Shown piece by piece: positions 5,937-59,534 of a DNA stretch of 64,000 nucleotides. The notes beneath the pieces were generated by a model that worked only from the letters and a program-made list of their open reading frames with translations, did no database searches and was not told the origin of the DNA. The stretch is taken from contig VGZV01000003.1 in the NCBI GenBank assembly GCA_016872385.1, forward strand, positions 7,294 to 71,293. The letters run 5' to 3'. A program made the position numbers and the translations under genes. How positions within the stretch are numbered: position 1 is the stretch's first letter; every line of letters starts with the position of its first letter. Origin of the DNA: SAR202 cluster bacterium (GTDB lineage: Bacteria; Chloroflexota; Dehalococcoidia; Lucifugimonadales; UBA3495).

Positions 5937-5969
5937 TGGTGGGGACTGCAGGAGACTTGGCAGTTAGTG

Positions 5970-6390: not shown

Positions 6391-6569
6391 CCTAAAAACT
6401 CACCGCTGAGTACGCGGAGACCATGAGATAAAAGGAATCCGGTGCAAACTCTCCGCATTCTTTGCGCTCTCTGCGATTATTAGGGATAGGCGCTCAATGC
6501 CAGCCCCCACACCGGCAAAACTTGGCACACAAGGCAAGGCCCTGGCCCGAAGGCTGGCAGTTGCCCCCG

Positions 6570-7097: not shown

Positions 7098-7175
7098 GGT
7101 CCAGCCTCCTCAATTCAGGTCTTGCTTAAACCTGCCCTGGCGTACTGGCGGGCAAGCTCCATGATGGTATTACTA

Positions 7176-9267: not shown

Positions 9268-9298
9268 TGTCTAGAGGAGTGTTTGGTTTCCGCCCTGC

Positions 9299-9910
9299 TT
9301 AGAACCGCCACCAGGACTCATGTTCCTGCAATGGCAATTCCATCATCACCAGGTCCTGATAGTTGCCCCACATATCCCGGATCCGGCCTTTCAAAGTGGC
9401 CACCACCTGGAACCCCACGCTTTCGGCAGCCATAATGGCGGCGGTTTCCCGCTGGGCCACCAGTTCAAAGGTGGCCTTATTCAGGCCCATTTCCGAGGCG
9501 ATGTCCAGAAGCTCCCGGATTAGCCGGCGGCCCAAGCCCAGCTCGCGGAACTCCGGGTCCACCACCACCCGCAATTCGCCCACGTGGCGGCGCGCCGGAG
9601 CCCGGCTGCGGTGCAAGGTGGCGTCGGCCACAATCTGGTCGTTGGAAATGGCTACCAGGGGCACCACACGGTCAAAGTCAATATTATTGGTCCAGTGGGC
9701 AATTACCTCAGGAGAGGTAACATTTTCCTTGAGGTAGTAGCGCTCCGATTCCGGGATGCGCTCAAAAAAATGGGCCAGCCGGATTTTATCCCCGTCTTGC
9801 AGGGGTCGTATTTCTACTGCGGTGCCATCCCGCAGGCGGCTTACCTTGGGGTATGCATCAGCGTTGGGTAGCGGCGCCATCTTTCCTCCCTTCAGGCTGT
9901 GGCTTATCAA
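9299..9910 (-). CDS. GNAT-family N-acetyltransferase (Pat-type protein acetyltransferase-like)
   Basis: RLRDGTAVEIRPLQDGD...ESERYYL N-terminal pattern and acetyl-CoA motif A (VVVDPEFRELGLGRRLIREL). Same strand as the three USP genes, with a 31-nt gap to the first. Confidence 0.75.
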   Translation of the reverse strand: MISHSLKGGKMAPLPNADAYPKVSRLRDGTAVEIRPLQDGDKIRLAHFFERIPESERYYLKENVTSPEVIAHWTNNIDFDRVVPLVAISNDQIVADATLHRSRAPARRHVGELRVVVDPEFRELGLGRRLIRELLDIASEMGLNKATFELVAQRETAAIMAAESVGFQVVATLKGRIRDMWGNYQDLVMMELPLQEHESWWRF

Positions 9911-10329: not shown

Positions 10330-10730
10330 GTCCCGATTTTATCGGGACGTATCGAAATCAACAGTAACATGGTCTCGATACGTCCCGACGGTGTCGGGAC
10401 ACTCGATCATCAGATGCTGGCAAATGAAACGGCCCTGGGTGTTGCAGCCTAAGACCGTGTTTAAAAAGTCATTGCGAGGGGCGTAGCCCCGAAGCAATCG
10501 CGTGCCCAGGACAAGATTGCTTCGCTTCACTCGCAATGACCAGAGGCAATCTTTTTAGACACATTCTAAGAGGGTGTGTGACAATTCCCGCTGGTGGTGA
10601 GTCCCGACGTATCGGGATCCCGACCAGGTCGGGGCTTGTCGAACCATGAGCGGGCTAAAAGCTACGCATCCTTCGACAAGCTCAGGATGAGCGGGCTGGG
10701 TAGACGGCATTTCTCACACAGGCTCTAAGG
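10330..10730. repeat. Composite array of hairpin modules (family C plus nested modules)
   Basis: Contains the reverse copy of GTCATTGCGAG..AAGCAATC..GATTGCTTCG..CTCGCAATGAC (10470-10545). Also contains the nested unit CTGGTGGTGAG[TCCCGACGTATCGGGATCCCGACCAGGTCGGGGCT]TGTCGAACCATGAG, shared with 31060-31119. Confidence 0.85.
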
Positions 10731-22429: not shown

Positions 22430-23386
22430 ATGGCAGCGCCGAAGATTGGCCTGGTAGTAGTTGCAGCGGATAGCGCCTCAGCCCTGGTGTCCATTGAGCG
22501 GGCTGAGGCCCTGGGCATTCCGGCGGTTTGGTTCACCAGTTCCGGCGCGGGCGGCGGCGACGCCATCACCCTCTTTGCCAGCGCCGCGGTGCGCACCCAG
22601 CGAATCCTGATGGGGACTTCCATCACGCAATTCTACACCCGCCACCCTGTGGCCCTGGCCCAACAGGTGCAGGTGGTGGCCCAGCTTGCGCCGGGCCGCT
22701 TCCGCCTGGGCCTGGGTTCCAGCGGCCAGGCGGGCATGGAACGCATGTTGGGAGTAAAGTTCCAGCAGCCCCTGGGCCATTTGCGGGAGTACATGCGCAT
22801 CAGCAAGGCGCTGCTCCAGAAGGGGGCCGTGGACATGGACGGCAAGCACTACCAGGCCCATGCCAAGCTGGCGGGGCCTCTGGACGTGCCGGTGATTGCC
22901 TCTGCCCTGGGGGCCAGCGCCTACCGGCTGTGCGGCGCGGAGGCCGATGGCGCCATTAGCTGGCTGTGCCCAAGCCCTTACCTGCGGGACGTGGCCCTGC
23001 CAGCCCTGCGCGCCGGGGCGCAAAAGGCAGGCCGCGATGCGCCGCCTCTCATTGCCCATGCTGCCGTGTGTGTCCACGCCAGCAAGGACGAGGTGCGGGC
23101 GGCGGTGAAGCAGCAGTTTGGCCACTTTGCCCGTGCCCCCTTCTACCAGAAGATGTTTGCCGCGGCGGGATTCCCTGAAGCGGCGGAGGGTGTCTGGAGC
23201 GACGCCATGTCCGATGCGGTGTGCTTCTCCGGCGACGAGGCGCAAGTCACCCGGCGGCTGCGGGAGTTGTCCTCTATAGGGGCTGACGAGATTTACGTGT
23301 CGGTGGTGGCGGCAGGGGCGGACCGGACTGCCTCCACCGAGCGGGCGCTGCAACTGCTGGGGCATTTGGGGCAGGGGAGCCCCTAA
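22430..23386 (+). CDS. LLM-class flavin/F420-dependent oxidoreductase
   Basis: 318 aa. AEALGIPAVWF and FRLGLGSS segments typical of the luciferase-like family. Confidence 0.7.
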   Translation: MAAPKIGLVVVAADSASALVSIERAEALGIPAVWFTSSGAGGGDAITLFASAAVRTQRILMGTSITQFYTRHPVALAQQVQVVAQLAPGRFRLGLGSSGQAGMERMLGVKFQQPLGHLREYMRISKALLQKGAVDMDGKHYQAHAKLAGPLDVPVIASALGASAYRLCGAEADGAISWLCPSPYLRDVALPALRAGAQKAGRDAPPLIAHAAVCVHASKDEVRAAVKQQFGHFARAPFYQKMFAAAGFPEAAEGVWSDAMSDAVCFSGDEAQVTRRLRELSSIGADEIYVSVVAAGADRTASTERALQLLGHLGQGSP

Positions 23387-23389
23387 CCA

Positions 23390-23912
23390 AATGTCGAAGT
23401 TGTCACCCTGAGTCCTTCGGCTGAAGGACGAAGGGTCTGGGGTGGCGGGCGTTTGCCCCACCCCAGATTCTTTTTCGTCCCAATGAAATCGGGACTCCGC
23501 AGAATGACATCCTTCATTGTTGTTAGGCACTCTTAGAGGTTGTCTAAAAAGATTGTCTCTGGTCATTGCGAGTAAAGCGAAGCAATCTTGTCCTGGGCAC
23601 GCGATTGCTTCGAGGCTACGCCCCTCGCAATGACTTTTTAAACACGCTCTTAGAGGTGTGTGACAATTCCCGCTCGTGGTGAGCCTGTCGAACCATGAGC
23701 GCCTAGCCTTTTTAGACACATTCTTAGAAGTTGTCTAAAAAGATTGTCTCTGGTCATTGCGAGTGAAGCGAAGCAATCTTGTCCTGGGCACGCGATTGCT
23801 TCGGGGCTACGCCCCTCGCAATGACTTTTTAAACACGCTTTTAGAGAGTGTGTGACAATTCCCGCTCGTGGTGAGCCTGTCGAACCACGAGCGCCTAGCC
23901 TTTTTAGACACC
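23390..23912. repeat. Family B unit followed by two tandem 191-bp family C units
   Basis: B unit at 23390-23538. The C unit (GTTGTCTAAAAAG...GTCATTGCGAG...CTCGCAATGAC...CTCGTGGTGAGCCTGTCGAACCA.GAGCGCCTAGCC...TTAGACAC) starts at 23539 and again at 23730, with only a few mismatches. Confidence 0.9.
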
Positions 23913-23915
23913 CTC

Positions 23916-24824
23916 TTAATCTGCTTTCCGCACGGCGTGGCCGCCAAACTGCTGCCGCAGCGCCGCCAGCATCCGCCCGCTCAACGGCTGCTCCTGGCGG
24001 GAGCGGAACCGCTGCTGCAATGCGGCGGTAATCACCGGCAGGGGCACCGCCAGGTCAACCGACTCCTGCACCGTCCAGCGGCCCTCGCCGGAGTCATCCA
24101 CGTAAGCCTGCAAGCTGGACAGGTCATGGTCCTCCGCTAGGGCGGCGGCGGCCAGGTCCAGCAACCAGGAGCGCACCACGCTGCCGTAGCGCCAAGTCTG
24201 GGCAATTTGGGCCAGGTCCAGCTGGAACTCTTCCTTGGCTGCCAGCAGTTCAAACCCTTCGGCGTAGGCTTGCATCAAGCCATATTCGATGCCATTGTGC
24301 ACCATCTTCACAAAATGGCCCGCTCCGCTGCTGCCCATGTAGCTGTAACCACGGTCCGGGCCTGGGGCCAGGGTCTGGAACAGCGGCTCCAGCCGCTCAA
24401 ACACTTCGCGCTTGCCGCCAATCATCAACGAATAGCCGTCCCGCAGGCCCCAGATGCCGCCGCTGGTGCCCACGTCCATAAAGTCTATGCCCAGGAGGGC
24501 CAGCCTCTGGGCGCGGGCCATGCTCTCCTTGTAGTTGGCGTTGCCCCCGTCAATCACCACGTCGCTGGGGGACAGAGCATGGGACAGGGCGTCAATGGTG
24601 GATTCGGTGGGCTGGCCTGGCGGCACCATCACCCACACCGCCCTGGGAGCCGCCAGTTGTTCCACCAGTCCGACCAGCGATGCCGCGCCCCGGGCTCCCA
24701 TGCCGGTCGTACCCTGCACCGCCTCGGCCCTGGGGTCGTAAACTACCACCTGATGCCCGCCATTTAGTAGACGCTGGGCCATGTTGCCGCCCATGCGGCC
24801 CAGGCCAATCATGCCTATTTCCAC
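23916..24824 (-). CDS. gnd: 6-phosphogluconate dehydrogenase, decarboxylating (short ~300-aa form)
   Basis: MEIGMIGLGRMGGNMAQRL Rossmann N-terminus. GHFVKMVHNGIEYGLMQAYAEG is the conserved 6PGDH signature region. Confidence 0.85.
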   Translation of the reverse strand: MEIGMIGLGRMGGNMAQRLLNGGHQVVVYDPRAEAVQGTTGMGARGAASLVGLVEQLAAPRAVWVMVPPGQPTESTIDALSHALSPSDVVIDGGNANYKESMARAQRLALLGIDFMDVGTSGGIWGLRDGYSLMIGGKREVFERLEPLFQTLAPGPDRGYSYMGSSGAGHFVKMVHNGIEYGLMQAYAEGFELLAAKEEFQLDLAQIAQTWRYGSVVRSWLLDLAAAALAEDHDLSSLQAYVDDSGEGRWTVQESVDLAVPLPVITAALQQRFRSRQEQPLSGRMLAALRQQFGGHAVRKAD

Positions 24825-26825: not shown

Positions 26826-27980
26826 ATGGCTAAGATACGATCTCCCCTGCTCCGGTGGATTGCAGTCCTTTCCCTGATGGTGGGCCTGGCGATTTGGCTG
26901 GAGGCCTGTGGCGCGGCGGCCACTCCGGAACCGCCGCAGGACACCGTATTCGCGCCCATCGAAAGCGTCAACCTGGAGTACGGCGCGGGCGCATCGGCCC
27001 AATCATTCCTGGTAATAGTCTCCGGTTTGCCCGACGGCTGCACCAAGTTTGAGAAGTACACTTTCTCCCGCAGTGGCGACACCTTCCAGGTGGCTGTGAC
27101 CAACCAGAGGCCGTCTGACCCCAACCTCGCCTGCACCCAGATTTATGGTATGGTTACGACTCGGATTCCGCTGGGACAAGACCTTGAAGCTTGCAAATTC
27201 TACACTGCGGTGGTCAATGGGAAGAGCTACCAGGTGCAGGCCATCGGCCTGGCGGTGCAGTGCAGCGCAGAACCCCCCATGTCGTCCGTTCCTGCACCTA
27301 TCGAAAGCGTCAACCTGGAGTACGGCACGGGCAGCCCTGCCCAGTCCTTCCTGGTCATCGTGTCTGGCCTGCCCGGCGGCTGCGCCAAGTTTGAAAAATA
27401 TGTCTTCTCCCGCAGTGGCGAGACCTTCCAGGTCACTGTCACTAACCAGATGCCGTCTGATCCCAACGTGGCGTGCACCAAGATTTACGGCTACGTCACC
27501 ACGCGGATTCCACTGGGATTGGATATTGAGGCCTGCAAAGTATATACGGCGGTGGTCAATGGGAAGAGTTACCAGGTGCAGGCCATTGGCCCAACCATCC
27601 GGTGCAGCGCTCCCCCTTCCACGTCCTCCATACCTACGCCAAAACCGGGGGAGGTTGAGCTGGCGCTGAAGGTGGGACAAAGCCAACGTGTCAATGACAC
27701 TGAGTTGACCCTCACTCTAGTGGAGATTGCTGGGGACTCCCGCTGTCCATCCGACGTAGTATGCGTTTGGGCGGGCGAGGCCACCGTTGTGGTGCGGGCC
27801 GCCCTGGGCGGGGAGACGAGCACTTTCAAGCTTGTGCTGGGCGCGTGCGCTGAGGGCGGCGCCAAGGCCAAGGTGGGAGAATACCAGGTGAGCCTGGTAA
27901 AGCTCGACCCCTATCCCGTGAGCGCCAAACCCATTCTGCCTACAGATTACATTGCCACGGTGCGGGTGTCCAGCGCATAA
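26826..27980 (+). CDS. Putative lipoprotein with an internally duplicated 114-aa domain plus a distinct C-terminal domain
   Basis: Signal peptide with a lipobox-like LEAC. Two tandem 342-bp repeats (APIESVNLEYG.G..AQSFLVIVSGLP.GC.KFEKY.FSRSG.TFQV.VTNQ.PSDPN.AC...YG.VTTRIPLG...EACK.YTAVVNGKSYQVQAIG). The C-terminal domain contains DSRCPSDVVCVWAG. Confidence 0.7.
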   Translation: MAKIRSPLLRWIAVLSLMVGLAIWLEACGAAATPEPPQDTVFAPIESVNLEYGAGASAQSFLVIVSGLPDGCTKFEKYTFSRSGDTFQVAVTNQRPSDPNLACTQIYGMVTTRIPLGQDLEACKFYTAVVNGKSYQVQAIGLAVQCSAEPPMSSVPAPIESVNLEYGTGSPAQSFLVIVSGLPGGCAKFEKYVFSRSGETFQVTVTNQMPSDPNVACTKIYGYVTTRIPLGLDIEACKVYTAVVNGKSYQVQAIGPTIRCSAPPSTSSIPTPKPGEVELALKVGQSQRVNDTELTLTLVEIAGDSRCPSDVVCVWAGEATVVVRAALGGETSTFKLVLGACAEGGAKAKVGEYQVSLVKLDPYPVSAKPILPTDYIATVRVSSA

Positions 27981-30835: not shown

Positions 30836-31038
30836 GTCTGTCCTCGCGCTTGGCCCCGGCGCTCTTTGAGCTTGTTGAGAGTTTTCTCCATTACCCCAAT
30901 GCTACCTACTCGGTACAAACCTGGGCTATGGTGTCGCCCCATGAGGTCTTCGGGTGTATGCTCCCGTAGCTACTGGATCCGACATTGAAAACCAATCAAT
31001 AGGGAAATCTTCACCCGTACCTCGGTCCTCTGAAGTAA

Positions 31039-31150
31039 GAGGGTGTGTGACAATTCCCGCTCGTGGTGAGTCCCGACGTATCGGGATCCCGACCAGGTCG
31101 GGGCTTGTCGAACCACGAGCACCTAGCCTTTTTAGACACCCTCTAAGGGG
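31039..31150. repeat. Nested hairpin-module repeat (family C type)
   Basis: About 95 bp nearly identical to 10570-10660, ending in CCTAGCCTTTTTAGACACCCTCTAAG. Confidence 0.85.
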
Positions 31151-31151
31151 T

Positions 31152-31287
31152 GTTGCCTCAAAAATCTCTGAAGTCTCTGGCCGGACTTTCGGCGTTCCGG
31201 AGAAAGCTGGAACCCATATCTGGCCTAAGCCATCTTGGGCGCTGGGCGCCGGCTTCCGCTGTTGTGACCGTCAAGTTTTGAGGCAAC
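31152..31287. mobile_element. 136-bp element with perfect 12-bp terminal inverted repeats, distantly related to MITE family A
   Basis: GTTGCCTCAAAA (31152-31163) and TTTTGAGGCAAC (31276-31287). The interior shares GTTCCGG...AAGCTGGAACCCA and GGCTTCCGC with copy 52952-53081. Confidence 0.45.
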
Positions 31288-38395: not shown

Positions 38396-38519
38396 GGTCC
38401 TGGGGCCTGTGGCCTAATGCCTCGTAATTGTACCTCGTACTTGACGATTTTGTAATAAGGGAGTCAAGTTCCCTGTGGCTGCGCAGGGCTGATTCGTTTT
38501 CAACCTGGGCGCCGGCGGG

Positions 38520-38652
38520 GTAGTGGGTCAATTTGGTCTTCGTCGTTCCGGCGCAAGCCGGAACCTAGTGGCGCTTCTCATCCATATTCTTATCTGGGCA
38601 CCCCGACGAGTCGGGGTGCGATGGATGGCGCCCAAGCAAATTGAACCACTAC
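38520..38652. mobile_element. MITE-like element, family A, copy 3 (133 bp)
   Basis: TIRs GTAGTGGGTCAATTTGG / CAAATTGAACCACTAC. Internal hairpins TTCCGGCGCAAGCCGGAA and CACCCCGACGAGTCGGGGTG. CCGGCGG is present on both flanks. Confidence 0.85.
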
Positions 38653-46054: not shown

Positions 46055-46225
46055 CATCACTCCCGCGGCGCCGCAAGGCTTAATAGGGAAGGCGGTATAA
46101 ATCCGCCACGGTCGCGCCACTGTATACGGGGAGTTGGCCCGCCAACATGCCACTGTGCCGATATCATCGGCATGGGAAGGCGTGGGCCAGCGTTAATCCG
46201 TGAGTCAGGAGACCTGCCCGGGATG
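46055..46225 (+). promoter_or_regulatory. Cobalamin (B12) riboswitch aptamer
   Basis: Conserved cores in the correct order: AATAGGGAA (46082-46090), GGTATAAATCC (46094-46104), GCGCCACTGTA (46114-46124), GCCACTG (46149-46155), GGGAAGGC (46174-46181), and the B12 box GAGTCAGGAGACCTGCC (46202-46218). Confidence 0.85.
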
Positions 46226-46315
46226 TGGAGTTTCACTCTGCGCCGGACAGAGACTACTCACTGGTGGCGCTATCCTTAACTGAACCTCAGCCCCACCAGC
46301 AAGATACCAGTGTTG

Positions 46316-46348
46316 AACCCTGGACAGCGCAGAGGCCAGGGTTTTTTT
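46316..46348 (+). terminator. Intrinsic terminator (likely riboswitch expression platform)
   Basis: Stem AACCCTGG (46316-46323) / CCAGGGTT (46336-46343), followed by T7 (46342-46348). Lies between the aptamer and the AAGGAGG RBS of the binding-protein gene. Confidence 0.75.
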
Positions 46349-46395
46349 ATTTGTCCGCCATGTTGGCCTGGTATGTGGGAAAAGGAGGATTTGGA

Positions 46396-48021
46396 ATGTC
46401 TGGTAAGGTTCTTGCTGCCCTGTTGTCCGCTTTAGTTGCCTTCATGGTCGTGGCCTGTGGGCCTGTTGCGGCTCCGCCCACGGTTACGCCTGCGGTTCCC
46501 GGGGACCTCCCTGCCGGAGTTACTCCAGTCGCAACACCCACGCCTGCCACTGCTCCAGCCAGGGGGGAAGTCATCCTCCGGGTGGGCGTGCCTTTGTTAC
46601 TCCAGCCGCCTGATCCCATTAAAGGCGGAGGCTTTAATGCCATTAACACCGGCCTGGGGGAGACTCTCTACAAGCTGAACAGCAAGCTGGAGCCGGAGCC
46701 CTGGCTGGCCGCCCGCGCCCGGCAGCTGGATGAAAAGACCTGGGAAATCTCTCTGCGCCAGGGCGTCAAATTCCACAATGGCGTGCCACTGGATGCCGCT
46801 AAAGTGAAAGCCTCCCTGGACCGGGCCATCGCCAAGTCTGCTACGGCTAAAGCTCTGCTTGATGCGGCACAAATTGAGGCCAAGGATGCAGTCACGCTTG
46901 TTGTCGTCACCAACAAGCCCAACCTCATATTGCCTGCCATTCTGGCAGAACCGTCCACGGTGATTGTGGAGGCGGCCGCGGCTGACGCCCTTGGCGACGC
47001 CTTTGCTGAAAAACCTGTATTGACCGGCCCATTCAAGATGGACCGGTTTCAGCAAGACAAGGAATGGTCGGTGGTGCGGCACCAAGAATAATGGGGTCAG
47101 CCACCCCAGGCAGACCGGGTGGTATTCTCGGTCCTGCCCGATAACACTACCCGCGTCCTGAGCCTGCAAAGCGGTGACATTGATATTGCCCACTACGTGG
47201 CGCCGGAAAGCGTAGCCACCCTGAACACATCTAGCAACTTGGCGGTTGCTACTGCGCCGCCGGTGGCCCTGGCGTACATGTACATTAACCACCGGCGCGG
47301 GCCATGGCAGGATTTGCGGGTGCGTCAGGCCATTGCCCAAGCCGTTGACCGGGAGGCGTTGGTGCGGGCGGTGATGCAGGGGCAAGCCATTGCTGCCACT
47401 GGCCCCTTTCCGCCGTCGGTACTGGACTGTGGCAGCCGGGTGAAGGGCCAGCCCTTCAATCCGGGCCAAGCCAGGCAGTTGCTGGCCCAGGCAGGCTACC
47501 AGGACAGTTCTGGCGACGGCTACCTGGATAAGGACGGCCAGACCCTGGTCATGACCCTGGTTACTTACCGCCAGCGCCCGGAACTGGTGCCCATAGCCGA
47601 GACTATCCAGGCCAGCCTTAAAAACATTTGCATCAAGGTGGAAGTGCGGATGGTGGAGAACATCAACAACGCGCTGGCCCAGTCCGACTGGGACGGTGGA
47701 ATGTACTTCAATAACATGGCCACCACCGGAGACCCCTACTGGGGGCTTTCCCAGTTCTTTGTAACTGGCGGCCCCGCCAACCGCGGGGGATTCAGCAGTG
47801 CAAAGGTGGATGCCCTGGCCCAGCAAGTATCCCAAACTTCCCTTCGCCAGACTCGCCAGCAGCTAGCCTGTGAAGCATCCCAGGCGGTGGTGGACGAGGT
47901 AGCCACCGTTCCTCTTCTGTACCCGAATTTTAATTACGGCGTATCCAGGCAGGTGACTGGGTTTGGCAGTCCCCATCCCTTCTTCCTTTATTTCCTGGAT
48001 TCAACTCTCGGCAAGCGCTGA
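46396..48021 (+). pseudogene. ABC transporter substrate-binding lipoprotein, family 5 (NikA/OppA/DppA type), interrupted by an in-frame TAA
   Basis: AAGGAGG RBS, signal peptide with lipobox VVAC, and family-5 pattern (PWLAARARQLDEKTWEISLRQGVKFHNG). The 46225 and 47119 ORFs are in the same frame, separated only by TAA at 47089-47091 within ...VVRHQE*WGQPPQADRVVFSVLPDN, where homologues have YWG. Confidence 0.8.
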
Positions 48022-48044
48022 ACTCTGTCGAAAGGAGCCCCTCA

Positions 48045-48984
48045 ATGAAGCCATTTGCGTTGGGTTTAGGACTTTCGCTTATTTTGGCTGCCCTGCTGGC
48101 GGCTGCCTGCGGCCCCACCGCAACGTCTCCCACGGCAGCGCCTGGGCCTGCCGCTACGCCCGCAGGTGTAGCGACTGCTCCAAAAAATGCGACGCTGGTG
48201 GTGGGCCTTCCCTTTATCAGCCAGCCGCCGGACCCAGTGCGTGGCGGGTTTCAGCCGGTCCAAACTGGCGTCGCTGAAACCCTTTTCAAGCTAGGCAGAG
48301 ACCTCAAGCCGGAGCCCTGGCTGGCCACCGGCGCCCGCCAGCTGGATGACAAGACCTGGGAGATTGCCTTGCGTCAGGGCGTCAAGTTCCATGATGGCGC
48401 GGTCATGGACGCAGCGGCGGTCAAGGCTTCCCTGGCCAGGCGGCTGCTGGCGGAGGCGGGATGGGTGGACGCTGACGGCGACGGAGTGCTGGACAAGAAC
48501 GGCCAACCGTTGGCGCTGAAGCTGCTCACTTACAAGCAGCGCCCGGAGCTTCCCCCATGGCTGAGGCCATTCAAGGGGCGCTAAAGGCTGTGGGCGTCAA
48601 AGTAAACGTGGTCACGGTGGAACAGATTGACCCGGCCTTGAAGCAAGGCGACTGGGACGGGGTCATGTACTTTACAACTATGGGTATTTCCGGCGACCCG
48701 TACCTGAACATTGCCCAGTACTTCACCACAGGCGGCGGCGCCAACTTTGGCGGGTACTCCAGTCCCTCGGTGGACCAGGGGGCCTCGCGCTTGAGCGTGG
48801 CTGCGGTAGGCACGGGCGGACGCAACTGGCTTGTGAAGCATCGCGGGCCATTGTGGAGGAGGTGGCTATTGTACCCCTCCTGTACCCCAACTTCCTCTTT
48901 GGAGTTTCCAGCAAGGTCACGGGTTTTGATGCGCCGCACCCCTTTTCTTGGTACTTCATAGACAACCGGCTGGGGAAGCGGTAA
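48045..48984 (+). pseudogene. Decayed paralogue of the family-5 substrate-binding lipoprotein
   Basis: Signal peptide with lipobox AAAC. Aligns to the upstream gene but lacks the equivalent of about 46820-47470 (about 217 codons; junction near 48435). Frame changes at the C5 run 48552-48556 and again near 48800-48825. The last frame ends ...PLLYPNFLFGVSSKVTGFDAPHPFSWYFIDNRLGKR*. Confidence 0.75.
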
Positions 48985-51759: not shown

Positions 51760-52905
51760 TCACGCCTTAACATGCTCAGCCCCGGCAGCCGCCGCCCGCG
51801 CAATTTCCTCCACCGCCAGGTCAATTTCCGCGTCAGTAGTGTAGCGGCCCACAGAGAAGCGCAGAGTCCCCATAGCATAGTCCAGGGGCACGTTCATGGC
51901 CTTGAGCACGTCGGATATGGATACCTGGTCACTGTGGCAGGCCGCTCCCGCCGATGCCGCCACTCCCCGCAGGCGCGCCAGCACTTCGTTGGCCTTTTCC
52001 CCCCGGAGGCTGATGCTGGAGGTATTGGGGAGGCGGAGGGTTGGGTGGCCGTTGACTCGCAGGTCTGGGAAGCGGCGGCGCAGCCCCTGCTCCAGCCGGT
52101 CGCGCATCCGGCCCATGCCAGACTGGTATTCCTCCAGGTGGCGGCTAATCAATTCGCATGCCTGCCCCAGCCCAACCACTTCAATCACGTTTTCCGTTCC
52201 GGCCCGCCAGCCCATCTCGTGGCTGGCCCCGTGCATCTGCTTCTCCAGTTTGATGCCGCTCCTGACGTATAGCGCGCCTACGCCCTTGGGAGCGTACAGC
52301 TTGTGCCCGGCCACGGAAAGCAAGCCCACCCCCAGGTCATCTACGTTGACCGGAATCTTGCCGATGGACTGGGCGCAGTCGCTGTGGACTATCACGCCAT
52401 GCCGGTGGGCAATGTCGGCAATCTGCCGGATGGGCTGGATGGTTCCCACCTCGTTATTGGCGTGCATGACGGTGACCAGGATGGTGCGGGGCGTAATGGC
52501 CCGCTCCACCGCAGCCGGGTCCACCATGCCGTACTGGTCCACCGGCAGGTACGTTACGGCACAGCCCTGAGTCTCCAGGTGCTTGCAGACTTCGATGACT
52601 GCGGGATGCTCCACGGCGGAAGTGATAATGTGGTTGCCGCGGCTCCGGTATGCTCCAGCCACGCCCTTGATGGCGTAGTTGTTGGCTTCGGTGCCGCCGC
52701 TGGTGAAGACCACCTCCTGGGGAACTGCCCCCAGCAGGGCGGCTACCTGGCCGCGGGCCTGCTCCACCGCCTGTTTGGCGGCTGCGCCGAAGGAGTGGCC
52801 GCTGGAGGGGTTGCCGAAATAGCTGTGGATGTAGGGCAGCATGGCTTGCGCCACCTGCGGGTCAATGGGCGTTGTTGCATTGTAGTCTAGGTAAATTTCA
52901 GCCAT
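51760..52905 (-). CDS. Cysteine desulfurase (NifS/IscS-like, class V aminotransferase)
   Basis: IYLDYNATTP N-terminus, PLP lysine in SVAGHKLYAPKGVGALY, catalytic cysteine in SAGAACHS. Confidence 0.9.
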   Translation of the reverse strand: MAEIYLDYNATTPIDPQVAQAMLPYIHSYFGNPSSGHSFGAAAKQAVEQARGQVAALLGAVPQEVVFTSGGTEANNYAIKGVAGAYRSRGNHIITSAVEHPAVIEVCKHLETQGCAVTYLPVDQYGMVDPAAVERAITPRTILVTVMHANNEVGTIQPIRQIADIAHRHGVIVHSDCAQSIGKIPVNVDDLGVGLLSVAGHKLYAPKGVGALYVRSGIKLEKQMHGASHEMGWRAGTENVIEVVGLGQACELISRHLEEYQSGMGRMRDRLEQGLRRRFPDLRVNGHPTLRLPNTSSISLRGEKANEVLARLRGVAASAGAACHSDQVSISDVLKAMNVPLDYAMGTLRFSVGRYTTDAEIDLAVEEIARAAAAGAEHVKA

Positions 52906-52951
52906 GCTGCACCCCCTTTCCTTCCCCCTTTCCCAAGCCGCCCTGGTCTTG

Positions 52952-53081
52952 GTAGTGGGTCAATTTGGTCTTTGTCGTTCCGGCCCAAGCTGGAACCCAA
53001 TGGCGCCCCTCGTCCATATCTTTATCTGGGCACTGGCTTCCGCCGGTGCAACGGATGGCGCCTAAGCAAACTGACCTCTAC
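52952..53081. mobile_element. MITE-like element, family A, copy 4 (about 130 bp)
   Basis: GTAGTGGGTCAATTTGG ... CAAACTGACCTCTAC. Flanked by a perfect 12-bp direct repeat CCCTGGTCTTGG (52941-52952 and 53081-53092). Confidence 0.8.
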
Positions 53082-53426
53082 CCTGGTCTTGGCATACGGG
53101 TTCCGGTATATTGCGGCATGGTCTGATTGTATCCCTGCCTCGACCGCAGTCAATACCGCAACCTAAGCGAAAAGACCCTTATCCTTGTCGTCAGGCACCT
53201 CCGGCCAAGGGGAAGTCCCTACCTCAAAAAAGGTGTATCGCCTCTTAGCTTTAGTTGCTGGTCTATCTACTCTTTAATTAGCCGGAATTTCAGTTGCCGG
53301 GACGCGGCCCGCTTGCGCCGATTCCCCTGCCGCGGGCCGCAGGGTTGGAGCCATACTGCTGCTTTCCGGCAATATCCTTTCCGCCGGCTCTCGACCAGGG
53401 GAAAGGACCGGCCGGAGGGCAAGATT

Positions 53427-54649
53427 ATGAGCGTGCTAGTAGTGGATGACACGGTAGAAGTGCGTCAGGCCATTGTAGCCATGCTTAAAAGCGCGTGCTA
53501 CAAGGACATTGCCACTGTGTCATCAGCCGTTGAAGCCCTGGCGTTTCTCGGCATTCCCGACAAGCTACACGAACCGTGTTCCGTGGAACTGGTGTTGATG
53601 GATGTAAACATGCCCGGCATAGATGGACTGGAGGGATGCCGCCGCATTAAAGCCGCGCCGGAACGCAAGGACATTCCAGTAATTGTTCTCACTGGAAACA
53701 GAGACCCAGGCATCCTGCAAGCATCCTTCACTGCTGGAGCATCGGACTATCTTGCCAAGCCCCCCCATCCTTTGGAGTTGCTAGCCCGCGTCAAGTCGGC
53801 CCTCGGCCTTAAGCGGGAGATGGACCACCGGAAACTGGCCCATATTTCTGACTTGGAAAACAAGAACCGGGAACTGGAAGTGGCCTACCGGCAGCTGGAG
53901 GCAAAAAACCGCGAGCTGGAGGAAGCCTCCATTGCCAAGACCCAGATTCTTTCCACCGCTACCCACGAGCTAAAGACGCCCCTGACCAGCATGTAGGATA
54001 TGTGGACCGCCTGCTGCACCAGCAGTCCACCGTGGGGGCCCTTAACGAAAGGCAACTGCGGTATCTGGAAACCGTCCAGAAGAACTCCTACCGCCTCAAG
54101 GTGCTGCTGAATGATTTGCTGGATGTTTCCCGCATTGAGGCTGGCAGCCTGGAACTGAAGCTGGAGGCAGTGGACGTGGGCCGGGAAGTGGAAGAGGTGG
54201 TGACGTCCATGCAAACTCAGATTCGCCAGAAGCAGACCCAGGTGTCGGCGGACATTCCTGTTGGGAAGTACCTCGTCAGGGGTGACCGGCTCCGGTTCAG
54301 CCAGGTTATTACCAACCTTCTGAGCAATGCCGTCAAGTATTCCCCTGCCGGGGCGGCGGTGACCCTATCCGCATCCCATGCGGACGGCAATGTGGAGGTG
54401 CGCGTGGCCGATGCGGGCATAGGTATATCGGCGGACAACCAGGCCAGGCTGTTTACCAAGTTTTTCCGGGTGGACAACACCTCAACGCGCCAGGAGTCCG
54501 GCACCGGCCTGGGTCTTTACATAACCAAGCATCTGGTAGAAGCCCACGGGGGCGCAATTCAGGTGGAAAGCCAGGAAGGCAAGGGCACCTCCATGCGACT
54601 GCTCTGGCCCCAGGCAGGGGCTGAGGCAGCTGGCGCCTTGGCGGCGTGA
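53427..54649 (+). pseudogene. Hybrid REC-HisKA-HATPase histidine kinase, interrupted by a 1-nt frameshift in the H box
   Basis: GGAGGG RBS. REC domain (MSVLVVDD, LVLMDVNMPGIDG), coiled coil, H box STATHELKTPLTSM*. A shift near 53991 restores ...LTS(I)VGYVDRLL and continues into the 54002-54649 ORF, which has N, G1 and G2 boxes (NLLSNAVKY, DAGIGI, GTGLGL). Confidence 0.8.
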
Positions 54650-54689
54650 ACAGAACAGCGCGCCAACAGCTTCTTGGACTGCCGCGACA

Positions 54690-54790
54690 GTAGGAGTCTT
54701 TGCGACATTCCCGATCGTGGTGAGCATATCGAACCATGAGCGAGTCAGGGTCAGCTCATCCTTCCACAAGCTCTGGTTGAGCGGCCAATG
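54690..54790. repeat. Degenerate hairpin-module repeat
   Basis: GATCGTGGTGAGCATATCGAACCATGAGCG resembles the CTCGTGGTGAGCCTGTCGAACCACGAGCG module. Confidence 0.5.
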
Positions 54791-54863
54791 TGAATGGCAA
54801 TTCTCACCTGCGCAGTAAGAAACCTGGACCTTTGGCAACTACTCTCTACCGGGGAAGGTTAAC

Positions 54864-56081
54864 ATGCGGAAGAACCTAGTGCTGGTTGCGGAAGATGAGG
54901 ATGACATCCGGACTCTGCTGGCAGACACCCTTGCCGATGCGGGTTTTGATGTCATTCAGGCCCAGGACGGCAGCATTGCGCTGGAAAAAATCCGCTATGA
55001 GCACCCGGATATCGTCCTGCTGGATGTTTGGATGCCGGTGATGGGCGGGTTTGAAGTGTTAAAGAAGCTCCGTGACGATCCGGAAACCAAAGATTTGCCA
55101 GTGGTGATTCTTACCGCCCTTAATGCCCTGGAGGGTGAAAAATCCAGCATGGACCTGGGGGTTACGCACTATATGACGAAGCCCTTGGACTTCGGAGTGC
55201 TGGAGGCCACCTTGCGGGTGGTGGTGCGGGAAAGCCAACGGGAGAACGACGTGGAGGAGACCAGCACCAACGCCGATGAGGCTACGGTGCAGAGCGCCAA
55301 TTCCAAGTTGTTCAATTCCAGCGGAAAGATAGCCTCTTTACGCACTGGCCGCAAAGACGCTGAGGAAGGGAGTAAGGAAAAGGTTCTAGCCATCCGCACG
55401 GCGGACAAGCTGGCAGCCCTGGAACAGAAGCTGGGGGGCGGCATGCCTTTCAACACGGTGACGCTGGTGGAAGGCGCAGCCTCTTCTGGGAAGAGCATCC
55501 TGTGCCAGCATTTCATCTATGGAGCGCTGGAGGGTGGCGTGGACACCACCTACTTCACCTCAGAACATTCTGAAAAGTCTCTGATAACTCAGATGAGTTC
55601 CTTAGGCCTGGACGTTTCAGCCCATTTGCGCAGTGGCCGCCTGCAAGTTTACGGCGTGCCGGAGCCTAAAGAGGGAGAAAGCCCAGAGCCGCTGCTGGCC
55701 AGCCTGGCCCAAGCCATGGAAGCCCTGCCCGTGCGGCAAAAATTCATTGTGGTGGACTCCATCACTGACCTGGCTGGTTCCAGCTCAGAGAGCGCCGTAA
55801 TTGCCTTCTTTACCTCCTGCCGCCGCATGTCCAACAAGGGCAGGACGGTGCTGGTTTCCATCCACTCCTACGCCTTTGGCGCTGAAATGTTCAACCGGCT
55901 GCGCAGCCTCTGCGACGGCTACTTGAGCCTCCGGTCAGAAACGGTGGCGGCCAAAGCAGTAAAGACACTGGAAGTGCGCAAAATGAAGGCCAATGACCTC
56001 ACCACTAACAATACCGTGAGCGTAGAAATAGTGCCCCTAACGGGGATGAAGCTCTTGCCGATTTCCCGCACCAAGGCTTAA
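54864..56081 (+). CDS. Response-regulator receiver domain fused to a KaiC/FlaH(ArlH)/RecA-like ATPase domain
   Basis: N-terminal REC (LVLVAEDEDDIR, IVLLDVWMPVMGG, YMTKP), an acidic/Ser-rich linker of about 60 aa, then LEQKLGGGMPFNTVTLVEGAASSGKSILCQHFIYGAL (Walker A) and KFIVVDSITDL (Walker B), as in KaiC-like/FlaH proteins. Confidence 0.7.
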   Translation: MRKNLVLVAEDEDDIRTLLADTLADAGFDVIQAQDGSIALEKIRYEHPDIVLLDVWMPVMGGFEVLKKLRDDPETKDLPVVILTALNALEGEKSSMDLGVTHYMTKPLDFGVLEATLRVVVRESQRENDVEETSTNADEATVQSANSKLFNSSGKIASLRTGRKDAEEGSKEKVLAIRTADKLAALEQKLGGGMPFNTVTLVEGAASSGKSILCQHFIYGALEGGVDTTYFTSEHSEKSLITQMSSLGLDVSAHLRSGRLQVYGVPEPKEGESPEPLLASLAQAMEALPVRQKFIVVDSITDLAGSSSESAVIAFFTSCRRMSNKGRTVLVSIHSYAFGAEMFNRLRSLCDGYLSLRSETVAAKAVKTLEVRKMKANDLTTNNTVSVEIVPLTGMKLLPISRTKA

Positions 56082-56087
56082 CCAGGC

Positions 56088-56486
56088 ATGGAGGAAGCTA
56101 TGAGTAAAGTGCTGGTGGTGGAGGATGAGGCGGACATTCGGGAACTACTGGCCGATACCCTTGCCGACGCCGGATATCAAGTGGTGCAGGCCACTGACGG
56201 CGGGGAAGGTTTGACCTGTGCCCTTACCAAGAACCCGGACGTGGTCTTGTTGGACGTGATGATGCCGGTGCTGGATGGCTTCCAGGTGCTGGAGCAACTG
56301 AAGGGTAACGCCGGAACTAGCAAGTTGCCAGTCATCATGGTCAGCGCCCGCGGGCAGGAGGCCGAAGTCCAGAAAGCCTTGCAAGCCGGCGCCTTTGCCT
56401 ACATTATCAAACCCTGGTTGGCCAACGAGGTAGAGGCCAAAGTGCGGGAGGCCCTGCATTCATCTCCGGCGCAGGCTGGTCTCTGA
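56088..56486 (+). CDS. Single-domain (CheY-like) response regulator
   Basis: KVLVVEDEADIRE, VVLLDVMMPVLDG and AYIIKP. Starts 6 nt after the REC-ATPase gene. Confidence 0.9.
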   Translation: MEEAMSKVLVVEDEADIRELLADTLADAGYQVVQATDGGEGLTCALTKNPDVVLLDVMMPVLDGFQVLEQLKGNAGTSKLPVIMVSARGQEAEVQKALQAGAFAYIIKPWLANEVEAKVREALHSSPAQAGL

Positions 56487-56565
56487 GGAGTGGGCAGAAC
56501 GGATGTCTGGAGCGGCTAAAGCAAATTGAATTGGGGTGGTGTTTAATGCACCACCCCAGTAAACA

Positions 56566-56855
56566 CCTCTCAGAGGGTGTCTAAAAAGGCTAGGCGCTCG
56601 TGGTTCGACAGGCTCACCACGAGCGGTCCTTCAGCCGAAGGACGCTCATCCTGAGCTTGTCGAAGGATGAGCGGTGGTAGTGCACAGCACTTTTGAGACA
56701 CATTCTCAGACCTTGTGCTAAAAGGTAGTTAATACTTCCAGGCTCACCCTTCGACACGCTCAGAGCCTGCCCTGAGCAAGCCGAAGGGGTGAGGGGTTTT
56801 TCCCGCTCGTGGTGAGCTTGTCGAACCATGCGCGGCCACTTTTGACACAGGTTCT
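56566..56855. repeat. Composite array of hairpin modules
   Basis: Reverse copies of the TTAGACAC..., CTCGTGGT..ACCACGAG, GTCCTTCAGCCGAAGGAC and CATCCTGAGCTTGTCGAAGGATGAGCG modules. Confidence 0.8.
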
Positions 56856-57145
56856 CAGAACCAGATGCAGGTGACTGTGTTGGTAATGCCCTTGATGGCC
56901 CTTATCTTATTCCGTAGTACAGTCGTGATGTCTTCTTGAGTATCAACCTCCAGTTCCACCACCACGTCATAGGGACCCAGCACTTCCCGAACCACCGTTC
57001 CGGGGATGGCGCGGAGTTGTTCCACCACATGCATTGTCCGCGCCGGTTCAACGTTGACCAGAATGTAAGCGTTGGCCGCCATCTTCCTGACTCCGGCCCT
57101 AAAAAGAATGTCACCACCCGTCCCTCGCCGGAGTTCCTCCGCCAT
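56855..57145 (-). CDS. Stand-alone Lrp/AsnC ligand-binding (RAM-like) domain protein
   Basis: MAANAYILVNVEPARTMHVVEQLRAIPGTVVREVLGPYDVVVELEV pattern. The likely start is the internal M at 57082, giving about 75 aa. Confidence 0.6.
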   Translation of the reverse strand: MAEELRRGTGGDILFRAGVRKMAANAYILVNVEPARTMHVVEQLRAIPGTVVREVLGPYDVVVELEVDTQEDITTVLRNKIRAIKGITNTVTCIWF

Positions 57146-57207
57146 ATGATACCACCTGGCCTCTCTGACTGGCAGATGCTGTAGCTGGTGGCCGGGGTTG
57201 GCGTGTC

Positions 57208-58185
57208 TCAGGGATTGTCCGGCGTTTCTGGAGTGTTCCGGAGAATATCCTCTAAAGTCCGGTCCAGGGCAGGATCCAACTCCACCGGCTCCACAAAAGG
57301 CGCAAAGGTGTGCTCCTCTCGCGCCTTCCGGATAATCTCCCTTGCCTCTTGGTGGTTGGCGGCTATCTGGTCCAAAATGCGTTGCAGGGCGGCGGTGTCG
57401 GTATCGGCGCGGCGCTGCAAGTCGGACAGGTCCAGGTCCAGCCGGAACAGGGAGCGGAGCCGCCGCATGATGTCATAGAAGGAGCGGTGGTCCGTGGTTA
57501 TCCCAACCTGCTTTTTGTTGGGCCCCACAAAAGGGTACATGGGAGCCATAGCCCCCAGCCGGAACATCTCCACCTCTGGGTGCCGGTAGTGGGCAATGGT
57601 CACCAGCGCCATGCCAATGGTTGGCCCCTGGCGCTGGTCGCTGCCAAAGTTGGAGAAGCGCACCCCGTACCGTTCCAGGGTCGGCTTCATCTCCGCCCTG
57701 CTATAGATGCAGTTAATGCTGCGTTCCATGTCCGGCGGGGCCGCGCCAAAGTAGCCTTCTACCGCCACCGTCTGCTGGATGCCCAGGCGGCTGACCGCCT
57801 GGAAAAATGCTTCGCCGTAGATTTCCACATGGCGCCAGGGCTCTTCGCCGATGAAGATAATCAGGCCATTGCCGGCATCGTAAAAGAAGTTCTCCCGGGA
57901 CATATTCTTGGCCGGAAGCCCGTCATGGAAGGCAACCGTGGGCCGGAAAGTGTCGTGGGTCCCAGCTACCTGGAAGGGGTAGCACATCTTGGATACCTGC
58001 GTGCCCATCTCGCCAATCTTGCGGGCGTTGAGCAGCTGCACCAGATAATTGGGCAAGCCGCCGGAGACCTCACCGCCGTCGGACCAGGAGTGACGCCAGC
58101 CTGCAATCAAATACTTGGCCTGGGGCTGGCTTTCCAAAGTCAAAAGTTCATCATCAGCCACGTCCCCCCCTCGAGGCAGGCGCAT
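57208..58185 (-). CDS. PAC2 (proteasome assembly chaperone 2-like) family protein
   Basis: 325 aa. KYLIAGWRHSWSDGGEVSGGLPNYL resembles the N-terminal GW.DAG motif of bacterial PAC2-family proteins. Assignment is from memory of the family pattern only. Confidence 0.5.
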   Translation of the reverse strand: MRLPRGGDVADDELLTLESQPQAKYLIAGWRHSWSDGGEVSGGLPNYLVQLLNARKIGEMGTQVSKMCYPFQVAGTHDTFRPTVAFHDGLPAKNMSRENFFYDAGNGLIIFIGEEPWRHVEIYGEAFFQAVSRLGIQQTVAVEGYFGAAPPDMERSINCIYSRAEMKPTLERYGVRFSNFGSDQRQGPTIGMALVTIAHYRHPEVEMFRLGAMAPMYPFVGPNKKQVGITTDHRSFYDIMRRLRSLFRLDLDLSDLQRRADTDTAALQRILDQIAANHQEAREIIRKAREEHTFAPFVEPVELDPALDRTLEDILRNTPETPDNP

Positions 58186-58493
58186 TCCTGGAAGCGCGAC
58201 AAAGAATGCGGAGCGGCAACCCGAATCCTGCCTACTGCCTATCTAGATATTCCCAGTGTATTCCCGATGCTGGGGGCCTGCAAGGGGAAGGGATCGGGCT
58301 TACCCTAGGCAGGCGCATGAATCAGAGCGCGGCTTGCCATGTTGTCATCCCCGGCGAGCCACCGGCAAAACTGGTCAAATGCCGCCCTGATCCACCTAGA
58401 ATTTCCGTGGGCAGAGCAGGCACAATGTTTCTTGTCATAGTTTTATATCTTTTTTGGATTTCTTCTATTCTAGACCGAGGAGGAATATTCTTC

Positions 58494-59534
58494 ATGGCAA
58501 CCACAAAGGCCGCTCCCCAATCCAAGGACAGACTGGAGTTCAAGGAAGTACCCGCAACCATTAGCGTCATCGGCGTCGGCGGCGGCGGATGCAACACCGT
58601 CATGCGCATGATGAGGGAGAAGCCCATCCCGGGCATTCAGTATATCTGCCTCAATACCGACATCAAGTCCCTGGGCAAGGCCCCCGAGGGAGCCAAGCTG
58701 ATTTTCATTGGCGAGCGGCTGACCCACGGTCTGGGCGCGGGCGGTGACCCCGAAGTGGGCGCCCAGGCTGCTGAGACCGGCAAGGCCGCCCTGCAAAAGG
58801 CAGTAGCCAATAGCGACCTGGTTTTCATCACCACCGGCTTGGGCGGCGGCACCGGCACCGGCGCGGCCCCCATTGTAGCGGAGATGGTCAAGCGGACCGG
58901 AATCCTCACCTTGGCGGTAGCCACTACTCCCTTCTCGTGGGAAGGCGCCCGCCGCATGGAGACCGCCATGGCAGGTATGGCCCGCCTCAAGGAGAAGGTG
59001 GACAACCTGATTCTGGTGCACAACGACAGCCTGCTCAAGATGTGCGCCAAGGACGTGTCCATCCAGGAAGCGCTGAAACTGGTGGACAGCGTGGTAATGC
59101 AGGGAATTCATTCCGTGGCTGAAGTGGTCAACTGCCCCGGCGAAATCAATGTGGACTTGGCCGATGTCAAGACCATTATGAAGATGCCGGGCCGCGCCCT
59201 GATGGCAGTGGGCGAAGGCCAGGGCCAGTACGGCGCCGCCCAGGCCTGCCAGATGGCCATGTCCAACCCCCTGGTCAACCTTTCCATAGAAGGGGCCAAG
59301 GGCGTGCTGTTCAACGTCAAGGGCGGTGCAGGTCTCACCCTGGGTGACGTCAATGCGGTGGGAGAGGCTATTTCCCGCAAGGCTGACCCCAAGGCCGTCA
59401 TCTTCTTCGGCATGGTCAATGACACCGAGTCCCAGAACACATCCCAGAACACCACCAAGCTCACCGTCATTGCCACCGGCATCCCGGATGGGACGCCCGC
59501 CAGCAACGGCAATGGCAACGGCGCTCACCACTAA
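58494..59534 (+). CDS. ftsZ: FtsZ homologue (346 aa) with a very short C-terminal tail
   Basis: GAGGAGG RBS. Tubulin signature GGGTGTGAAP, VIGVGGGGCN, GLGAGGDPEVG, T7 loop NVDLADVKTIM, core ends at LTVIATGI. The tracked ORF start (58206) is an upstream extension. Confidence 0.85.
   Translation: MATTKAAPQSKDRLEFKEVPATISVIGVGGGGCNTVMRMMREKPIPGIQYICLNTDIKSLGKAPEGAKLIFIGERLTHGLGAGGDPEVGAQAAETGKAALQKAVANSDLVFITTGLGGGTGTGAAPIVAEMVKRTGILTLAVATTPFSWEGARRMETAMAGMARLKEKVDNLILVHNDSLLKMCAKDVSIQEALKLVDSVVMQGIHSVAEVVNCPGEINVDLADVKTIMKMPGRALMAVGEGQGQYGAAQACQMAMSNPLVNLSIEGAKGVLFNVKGGAGLTLGDVNAVGEAISRKADPKAVIFFGMVNDTESQNTSQNTTKLTVIATGIPDGTPASNGNGNGAHH

Follow-up and report, generated by a model that had tools for sequence, protein, structure and literature searches.

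A receiver domain joined to an ArlH-like ATPase in a two-component cassette of Chloroflexota, with a possible link to bacterial archaella

The genome of a SAR202 cluster bacterium (Chloroflexota, Dehalococcoidia) encodes a protein, here called REC-ArlH (or REC-FlaH), in which a CheY-like receiver (REC) domain is joined to an ATPase domain that, judged by sequence and fold comparison, is a paralogue of the archaellum protein ArlH (FlaH). We analyzed a 64,000-nucleotide stretch of contig VGZV01000003.1 (assembly GCA_016872385.1), called the window below, in which this gene forms a cassette with a histidine kinase gene and a gene for a second, stand-alone receiver. The parts, a CheY-like receiver and ArlH, are known families. 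We propose, at slightly less than an even chance of being right, that the protein is an ArlH paralogue gated by phosphorylation, with the complex of ArlH and the archaellum ATPase ArlI as its target. Feature coordinates are collected in Table 1.

An earlier note, made from the letters of this DNA alone, had described a receiver fused to a KaiC/FlaH-like ATPase at this place, and the open reading frame (ORF), its start, its length and the quoted motifs are as described there. The identical 405-aa protein was called in independent JGI, ENA and Logan assemblies. Response_reg (PF00072) matches aa 6-117 with an E value of 1e-23 (84.1 bits, cut-off 30.2), and the 'KaiC/ATPase' family PF06745 matches aa 186-398 at 2e-25 (90 bits, cut-off 27), so that the Pfam matches of both domains are far beyond chance. 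An AlphaFold2 (AF2) model built from 47 homologues has a mean predicted local distance difference test score (pLDDT) of 87 and contains two well-folded domains and a linker. Across the family, the distance from the acceptor Asp to Walker A ranges from 102 to 200 residues.

The receiver contains a complete REC active site, with the E10/D11 acidic pair, D54, T84 and K106-P107. D11, D54, T84, K106 and P107 do not vary among 47 aligned family members, and the same residues are ~100% conserved in 84 cassette-type REC domains. Because these positions are essentially invariant, we predict a phosphorylatable response regulator, not a pseudo-receiver, which bears out the canonical REC domain with phospho-acceptor Asp of the earlier note. 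The modeled domain (pLDDT 85-98) has (beta-alpha)5 topology, its five helices alternating with strands at 5-9, 29-33, 50-54, 80-84 and 102-105. The fused receiver and the stand-alone receiver of the cassette share 44-46% identity.

The ATPase domain is predicted to belong to the ArlH/FlaH branch of the KaiC superfamily. It is a single RecA/KaiCII-like domain of ~230 aa with a RecA-type Walker B (Asp, then Ser/Thr). The NCBIfam 'FlaH' subfamily model PRK06067 (NF004723) gives 201.9 bits and passes its cut-off of 194. The best sequence match in the PDB is Sulfolobus acidocaldarius FlaH (4YDS, E 2e-24), and the AF2 model is closest to the FlaH fold: Foldseek ranks 4YDS first (E 8e-21, template modelling score 0.90, root-mean-square deviation 2.0 A), and ranks 2 and 4 are chains of 4WIA, the FlaH of M. 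jannaschii. K210 and D298 align with K33 and D122 of 4YDS, and T232-S233-E234 is the equivalent of T55, T56 and E57 of S. acidocaldarius ArlH. Both Walker motifs are intact by Pfam, NCBIfam and alignment to 4YDS, as had been claimed, and K210 and D298 are kept in 81 of 81 members of the clade described below; counting T232-S233-E234 as well, conservation is 73-81 of 81. The Glu of the T-S-E motif occurs in 73 of the 81 and in all operon ArlH proteins. Among other P-loop families, none gives a better fit: RecA, RadA, DnaB and Hda models reach only E > 1e-3 compared with 1e-60 for FlaH. A KaiC identity was rejected: the KaiC equivalog models give 61 bits (cut-off 408) and 27 bits (cut-off 546), spanning 27-63 against 408-546, and the protein has a single domain. 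The superfamily named in the earlier note therefore stands, and its choice between KaiC-like and FlaH/ArlH-like is narrowed to an ArlH (archaellum) paralogue, not a generic KaiC.

A homologue search across 5.8 billion proteins returned ~80 clusters with the full-length REC plus PF06745 architecture, at 31-65% identity. Almost all come from Dehalococcoidia or other Chloroflexota; the named sources are Dehalococcoidia or Chloroflexota plus one 'Binatia'. Database annotation is automatic only, and JGI names the homologues 'archaellum biogenesis ATPase FlaH / CheY-like'. GTDB species genomes were scanned by alignment of ATPase domains, as the whole protein as query gave only REC matches in Proteobacteria. 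In a tree of 154 ArlH domains, built like all trees here by neighbour joining and with an unresolved backbone, the cassette proteins group as a single clade within the ArlH family (84 of 100 bootstraps).

Members of this clade are encoded in a conserved three-gene cassette. A soluble REC-HisKA-HATPase kinase (~400-450 aa) is followed by REC-ArlH and by a stand-alone REC (~130 aa), an order found on long contigs and in GTDB species genomes (loci L001, L025-L029, L034, L038, L039 and L041). A HisKA/HATPase kinase gene lies immediately upstream of REC-ArlH in all cassettes, and the kinases are orthologous to one another (285-740 bits). Orthologues of the small REC occupy the same position in L025, L028, L029, L034 and L038. 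In the window, too, a kinase is encoded upstream and a stand-alone REC 6 nt downstream, so the two-component operon setting of the earlier note holds. A large hybrid kinase precedes the cassette in L026 and L027, and an Hpt protein is annotated in L027, which indicates a multi-step phosphorelay. The cassette is amplified at some loci: L028 has two tandem REC-FlaH genes (5491-7833), and L027 (9995-11989) and L039 (10046-11963) each pair a REC-FlaH gene with a neighboring unfused FlaH paralogue that belongs to this clade as well.

A second lineage of REC-ArlH proteins is encoded inside archaellum operons. We found it by scans seeded with ArlI and then with the fusion proteins, which gave overlapping sets of at least 16 and at least 30 loci. 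In more than 30 Chloroflexota species, a 351-365-aa REC-ArlH occupies the ArlH slot directly upstream of arlI-arlJ, and a REC-HK-REC histidine kinase (HK) and a small REC usually precede it. The hosts include Anaerolineae, Ardenticatenaceae, Promineifilaceae, Candidatus Aquidulcis and Candidatus Trichofilum. Their receivers have degenerated: 30 of 31 lack D11, 21 of 31 have Ala in place of T84 and 9 of 31 lack the acceptor Asp. All in-operon fusions fall outside the cassette clade in 100 of 100 bootstraps. Since the two groups are separate, the tree suggests that the association of a receiver with ArlH arose at least twice in Chloroflexota, and the window clade appears to be the lineage that kept a fully canonical receiver. 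Fused and unfused ArlH stand side by side in L183, L199 and L203. Unfused REC (128-143 aa), ArlH and ArlI are encoded at the same place in L216 (Caldilineaceae SJ28), L217 (Litorilinea sp.) and L230 (CFX7); this REC probably corresponds to the 'CheY' reported inside the archaellum locus of Litorilinea aerophila (PMC12488501). A later preprint disputes the CheY identity of the single REC protein in that locus.

Among bacterial phyla, only Chloroflexota are known to carry acquired archaella, which occur in 243 of 3,780 species, and a functional archaellum in Bacteria was shown in 2025 in L. aerophila (PMC12488501). The phylum lacks CheF and mostly lacks Che systems, and the authors of that study expect another component that passes signals to the motor (PMC12488501). 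An unfused ArlH (~238 aa) is found in canonical operons of arlB, arlCDE, arlG, arlF, arlH, arlI and arlJ from Dehalococcoidia, SAR202 and Archaeoglobi, in which Pfam assigns T2SSE to ArlI and archaellin-like folds to ArlF and ArlG. In at least five metagenome-assembled genomes (MAGs), the cassette coexists with a complete archaellum operon that lies elsewhere and encodes an ArlH of its own. They are DAOUHE, JADFPM, SAR202 Io17-Chloro-G2 (MUCP01), CBDFGE and CBDFJT; in Io17-Chloro-G2, REC-ArlH is at L041 and the operon ArlH and ArlI are at L037. A sixth, CBDFGQ, is ambiguous, with a solo ArlH in an atypical context. An archaellum is present in at least 5-6 of 12 cassette-bearing species compared with about 6% of the phylum, a figure that ignores phylogeny; the excess is suggestive. 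The metagenomic contig L291 carries a cassette-like REC-FlaH gene with a canonical receiver 4.4 kb upstream of a SAR202-type archaellum operon and co-oriented with it, with further two-component genes in between. It is the only cassette-type exception to the separation from archaellum operons. When REC-FlaH and ArlI entries of the protein database were paired by the length of their longest contig, no match appeared among the 120 entries listed of 7,948.

Two-component genes are found near archaellum operons in other arrangements as well. Dehalococcoidales operons with unfused ArlH have a conserved four-gene block ~3-8 kb downstream of arlH, encoding an HK (~500 aa), a REC-REC protein (~250 aa), a REC-HK (~538 aa) and a REC protein (~235 aa); we found no paper that mentions it. 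The block is present in L059, L063, L066, L068-L074, L076, L079-L081, L083, L087, L088, L090, L091, L094, L097, L101, L102, L104, L105 and L107. In L055, a 348-aa protein with an ArlCDE-like region and a REC (8855-9900) is encoded directly upstream of ArlH-ArlI, with two HK-REC hybrid kinases before it. This ArlCDE-REC protein is possibly another way of wiring receivers to the motor.

The proposed mechanism starts with the soluble kinase: an upstream sensor would control it by way of its N-terminal REC, and it would autophosphorylate the His of 'THELKTPL'. The phosphoryl group would pass to Asp54 of REC-ArlH. It may also pass to the small REC, which could act as a competitor, a phosphate sink or an alternative output. 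ArlH needs bound ATP to bind ArlI, hexamerises on ArlI and binds it less well when phosphorylated, and Walker and E57 mutants of ArlH are non-archaellated (10.1101/2021.03.19.436134). By analogy with this biochemistry, the linker-tethered phospho-REC may alter the ATP-dependent oligomerisation or the partner binding of the ArlH-like domain. The most likely partner would be the ArlI/ArlH motor complex of an archaellum whose genes lie at another place in the genome, and REC-ArlH would then couple two-component signaling to archaellum assembly or rotation in a phylum without CheF. A broader version, which we hold tentatively and with more doubt than belief, is that REC-ArlH proteins are the missing coupling device of the bacterial archaellum, exchanging with or blocking canonical ArlH on the ArlI hexamer and so switching assembly or rotation. 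Dedicated REC-HK relays would then phosphorylate a receiver that is either part of an ArlH subunit or the product of a gene beside arlH; the stand-alone cassette, whose receiver would be fully functional, would be the trans-acting version, and the in-operon fusions with degenerate receivers the built-in version.

The window kinase gene is broken by a 1-nt deletion at about 53993/53994 (window 53990-54004), just past the H-box. Pfam finds Response_reg and the start of HisKA in ORF 1, and the end of HisKA and HATPase_c in ORF 2. The window reads ATG-TAG where kinase orthologues read ATG-GTA-GGA. Adding one G after 53993 yields a 407-aa REC-HisKA-HATPase protein that is co-linear with the intact orthologues in L025, L028, L029 and L038, with 'TSMVGYVDRLL' where the orthologue has 'TSIVGYVDRLL'. 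The split is identical in the JGI, ENA and Logan assemblies, whose source metagenomes are JGI 3300020193, ERZ27247963 and SRR16108669. A programmed frameshift was considered and rejected. Because there is no slippery sequence at AGC ATG TAG and a single G restores the consensus 'TSMVGY', a simple 1-nt deletion is the economical reading. With its kinase frameshifted, the relay in the source genome may be inactive or may receive phosphate from a different kinase. Two SBP_bac_5 paralogues at 46225-48961, genes for peptide ABC substrate-binding proteins, are each fragmented as well, into pieces of 231-300 and 134-179 aa. Together with the kinase frameshift, this suggests that several pseudogenes formed recently in the population or that assembly errors recur.

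The kinase lesion is one of several points that weigh against a link to the archaellum motor. REC-ArlH scores 163.1 bits on the ArlH equivalog model NF052589 and fails its cut-off of 215; a bona fide SAR202 operon ArlH (L037) itself scores 208.9. The long branch of the cassette clade would agree with a new function. No archaellum operon is among the matches listed for 6-7 of the 12 cassette MAGs, which is not proof of absence, and in three of these MAGs (CBDDEH, CBDDBY and CBDDEJ) the contig with the cassette is 1-2.5 Mb long. None of arlB, arlCDE, arlF, arlG, arlI or arlJ is found in the window or ~17 kb beyond it (about 85 kb around the gene), and no arl gene lies within 10 kb of the cassette in 12 of 12 GTDB loci. 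The cassette kinase matches archaellum-operon kinases at 160-230 bits, the same as unrelated proteobacterial and actinobacterial kinases. The L291 REC-FlaH gene (330-1475) is interrupted by an in-frame TAG between ARQVE and MAANF, which could be a pseudogene, read-through or a sequencing error. The long branch, the missed equivalog cut-off, the distance from arl genes and the MAGs with no archaellum listed also favor an alternative in which the protein is an ArlH duplicate serving as the KaiC-like output of a two-component relay, with a partner unrelated to the archaellum. REC phosphorylation would then control ATP-dependent oligomerisation or autophosphorylation, and the protein would act much like the signaling hubs that KaiC-like proteins are proposed to be in archaea. 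The cassette is self-contained, is sometimes amplified and is preceded at two loci by large hybrid kinases and Hpt, and regulatory KaiC-like paralogues are known, such as CirA of H. volcanii (PMC12642392), as are KaiC-REC fusions in Methanosarcinaceae (PMC5847659). We regard this alternative as a serious possibility that nevertheless falls well short of probable; against it stand the enrichment of archaellum genomes among cassette carriers, the physical linkage in L291, the REC-ArlH fusions that serve as the operon ArlH in other Chloroflexota and the retention of all ArlH-specific residues.

It is unlikely that the cassette in the source genome is a decaying remnant, with a kinase pseudogene and an intact REC-ArlH that no longer signals. 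Such decay would account for the deletion shared by three assemblies, for the dispersed repeat inserted between the kinase and REC-ArlH genes, for the fragmented SBP_bac_5 genes nearby and for the stop in L291. However, neither the REC-ArlH gene nor the small REC gene is truncated, and both keep all their catalytic residues. Asp54 could also receive its phosphate from other kinases. Moreover, the kinase aligns end to end with its orthologues with no second lesion; because the lesion is single, the event is very recent, polymorphic or an error. A role as a component of a KaiC-type timer (hourglass or clock) is very improbable. The PF06745 'KaiC' match, matches to KaiC structures at E 1e-15 to 1e-22 and the neighboring kinase and response regulators, which loosely recall SasA and RpaA, would fit a timer, but the protein has one RecA domain rather than the CI-CII tandem and scores far below the KaiC equivalog cut-offs, FlaH models and structures fit clearly better, and no KaiA or KaiB Pfam family appears in the precomputed lists for genes within 10 kb on either side. 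We give hardly any credence to a DNA-repair (RadA- or RecA-like) or anti-phage defense ATPase under two-component control. RecA superfamily membership and weak PADLOC matches would agree with it, but the PADLOC matches are limited to the REC and HATPase domains (E 1e-6 to 1e-9), the repair-protein models fit no better than stated above, and the surroundings contain no nuclease, helicase or defense-island genes. A phosphorylation-gated ArlH paralogue acting on the archaellum motor thus remains the reading we prefer, at the strength given at the outset.

The kinase and REC-ArlH genes are separated by 214 nt in the window compared with 6-90 nt in other cassettes, and the gap contains a dispersed repeat. 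Repeats of this kind, ~60-150 nt long, in both orientations and like miniature inverted-repeat transposable elements (MITE) or repetitive extragenic palindromes (REP), flank and interrupt the cassette, with copies at 54724-54807, 56562-56710 and 56786-56859. Further copies are at 4865-5010, 5974-6386, 10449-10717, 23380-23918 and 31036-31154. Rfam has no match within 52900-57300, which covers the three copies near the cassette. A second dispersed repeat of ~83 nt is found at 1546-1628, 38519-38601 and 52951-53033, the last copy just upstream of the kinase gene. On the + strand, a promoter scan gave no match beyond what shuffled sequence would give. The hairpin after the small REC gene is likely the end of the transcription unit, judged by its sequence. 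Directly downstream of the cassette are genes for an AsnC-type small regulator, a PAC2-family protein and FtsZ (56855-59534), which we do not count in the system because they are not conserved at other cassette loci.

Elsewhere in the window, a 402-aa protein (2132-3340, + strand) matches bacterial eRF1-like families (baeRF_family10 and relatives); its gene adjoins an alanine dehydrogenase/PNT-type gene and a universal stress protein cluster. An ORF at 26826-27980 contains two tandem 300-nt copies (26952-27593) with 80% identity, giving an internal protein repeat.

Table 1. Features of the REC-ArlH cassette in the window, and loci of REC-ArlH fusions inside archaellum operons
Feature	Window position or locus	Strand	Basis or remark
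REC-ArlH-like fusion gene	54864..56081	+	ATG start, 405 codons, 405-aa product
Receiver (REC) domain, aa 1-133	54864..55262	+	Pfam PF00072, AF2 model
Disordered low-complexity linker, aa 134-170	55263..55373	+	AF2 pLDDT <50
ArlH/FlaH-like single RecA-fold ATPase domain (predicted), aa 176-402	55389..56069	+	NCBIfam, PDB, Foldseek
VLLDVWMPV, acceptor Asp54 at 55023-55025	55014-55040	+	translation
Walker A GAASSGKS (G204-S211, Lys = K210)	55473-55496	+	translation
T232-S233-E234 (TSEH at 55557-55568)	55557-55565	+	translation
Walker B FIVVDSI (D298 at 55755-55757)	55743-55763	+	translation
Cognate hybrid histidine kinase (REC, coiled coil, HisKA, HATPase_c)	53427..54649	+	split: 53427-53996 and 54002-54649
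Dispersed intergenic repeat copy in 214-nt kinase/REC-ArlH gap	54724..54807	.	repeat family D9 and related families
Stand-alone single-domain response regulator, 132 aa	56088..56486	+	Pfam PF00072, E 1e-28; 6 nt past REC-ArlH stop
G+C-rich hairpin, 10-bp stem	56532..56558	.	terminator-like consensus match only; between cassette and convergent AsnC-like gene
In-operon fusion loci, first part	L095, L121, L124, L127, L129, L137, L139, L142, L146, L152, L153, L156, L159, L161, L162		
In-operon fusion loci, second part	L183, L187-L213, L215, L223, L264, L327, L330, L347		

The window protein shares with archaellum ArlH/FlaH (4YDS, 4WIA and P. furiosus ArlH) the single RecA/KaiC fold of ~230 aa, the Walker A GKS, the Walker B hhhhDS and the T-[TS]-E motif. 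Unlike archaellum ArlH, it has in addition the N-terminal receiver, predicted to be phosphorylatable, and the disordered linker, its gene lies in a two-component cassette and not between arlF/arlG and arlI, and it belongs to a separate clade (bootstrap 84). The in-operon fusions have the same REC-then-ArlH order, Chloroflexota hosts and REC-containing hybrid kinases with a small REC nearby, but their linkers are short (351-365 aa in total), they lie upstream of arlI-arlJ and their REC is degenerate. In Euryarchaeota, free CheY-P binds the adaptor CheF, and CheF binds ArlCDE (PMC7534055). As proposed here, REC-ArlH would likewise let a phosphorylated receiver signal to a cytoplasmic motor complex; unlike in the CheY-CheF-ArlCDE switch, the receiver is covalently fused to an ArlH-like subunit and no CheA, CheW, MCP or CheF is involved.

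KaiC-superfamily ATPases combined with two-component domains have been noted in archaea. A KaiC-REC fusion was catalogued in six Methanosarcinaceae genera only, without functional study (Galperin et al. 2018, PMC5847659), and KaiC-like archaeal ATPases were proposed as signal transduction hubs (Makarova, Galperin and Koonin 2017, as cited in PMC5847659). Those proteins likewise pair a single-domain KaiC-superfamily ATPase with two-component domains. Unlike the Methanosarcinaceae fusions, the window family is bacterial (Chloroflexota), has REC first and then the ATPase, and appears to come from the ArlH branch. The cyanobacterial KaiC system (SasA, CikA, RpaA) also places a KaiC fold beside a histidine kinase and response regulators, and the ArlH domain aligns with both KaiC halves; absent from the window protein are the double-domain hexamer, the KaiA/KaiB partners and the S431/T432 phosphosites. 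In the literature searched we found no paper describing REC-ArlH fusions, in agreement with the earlier note, which had called such a protein not experimentally characterised. The bacterial-archaellum papers and a 2026 chemosensory-coupling preprint make no mention of receiver-ArlH fusions, of two-component kinases in these loci or of the cassette.

REC-ArlH is a concrete, testable candidate for the open question of how the archaellum is controlled in Chloroflexota. Behind this candidacy stand the repeated fusion or pairing of ArlH with receivers in this phylum, the hybrid kinases in or beside the loci and a cassette clade with a canonical receiver. If the broader version of the proposal is true, control of the motor would follow a principle that is neither that of bacterial CheY-FliM nor that of archaeal CheY-CheF-ArlCDE. 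Enzymatic output domains are common among response regulators. In this family the output would be a KaiC/ArlH-type ATPase, a class of response regulator without a characterised member, and the family would be an example of a horizontally acquired archaeal machine part rewired into bacterial-style signaling. If the archaellum link is wrong, the family would still be an uncharacterised bacterial KaiC-like signaling module.

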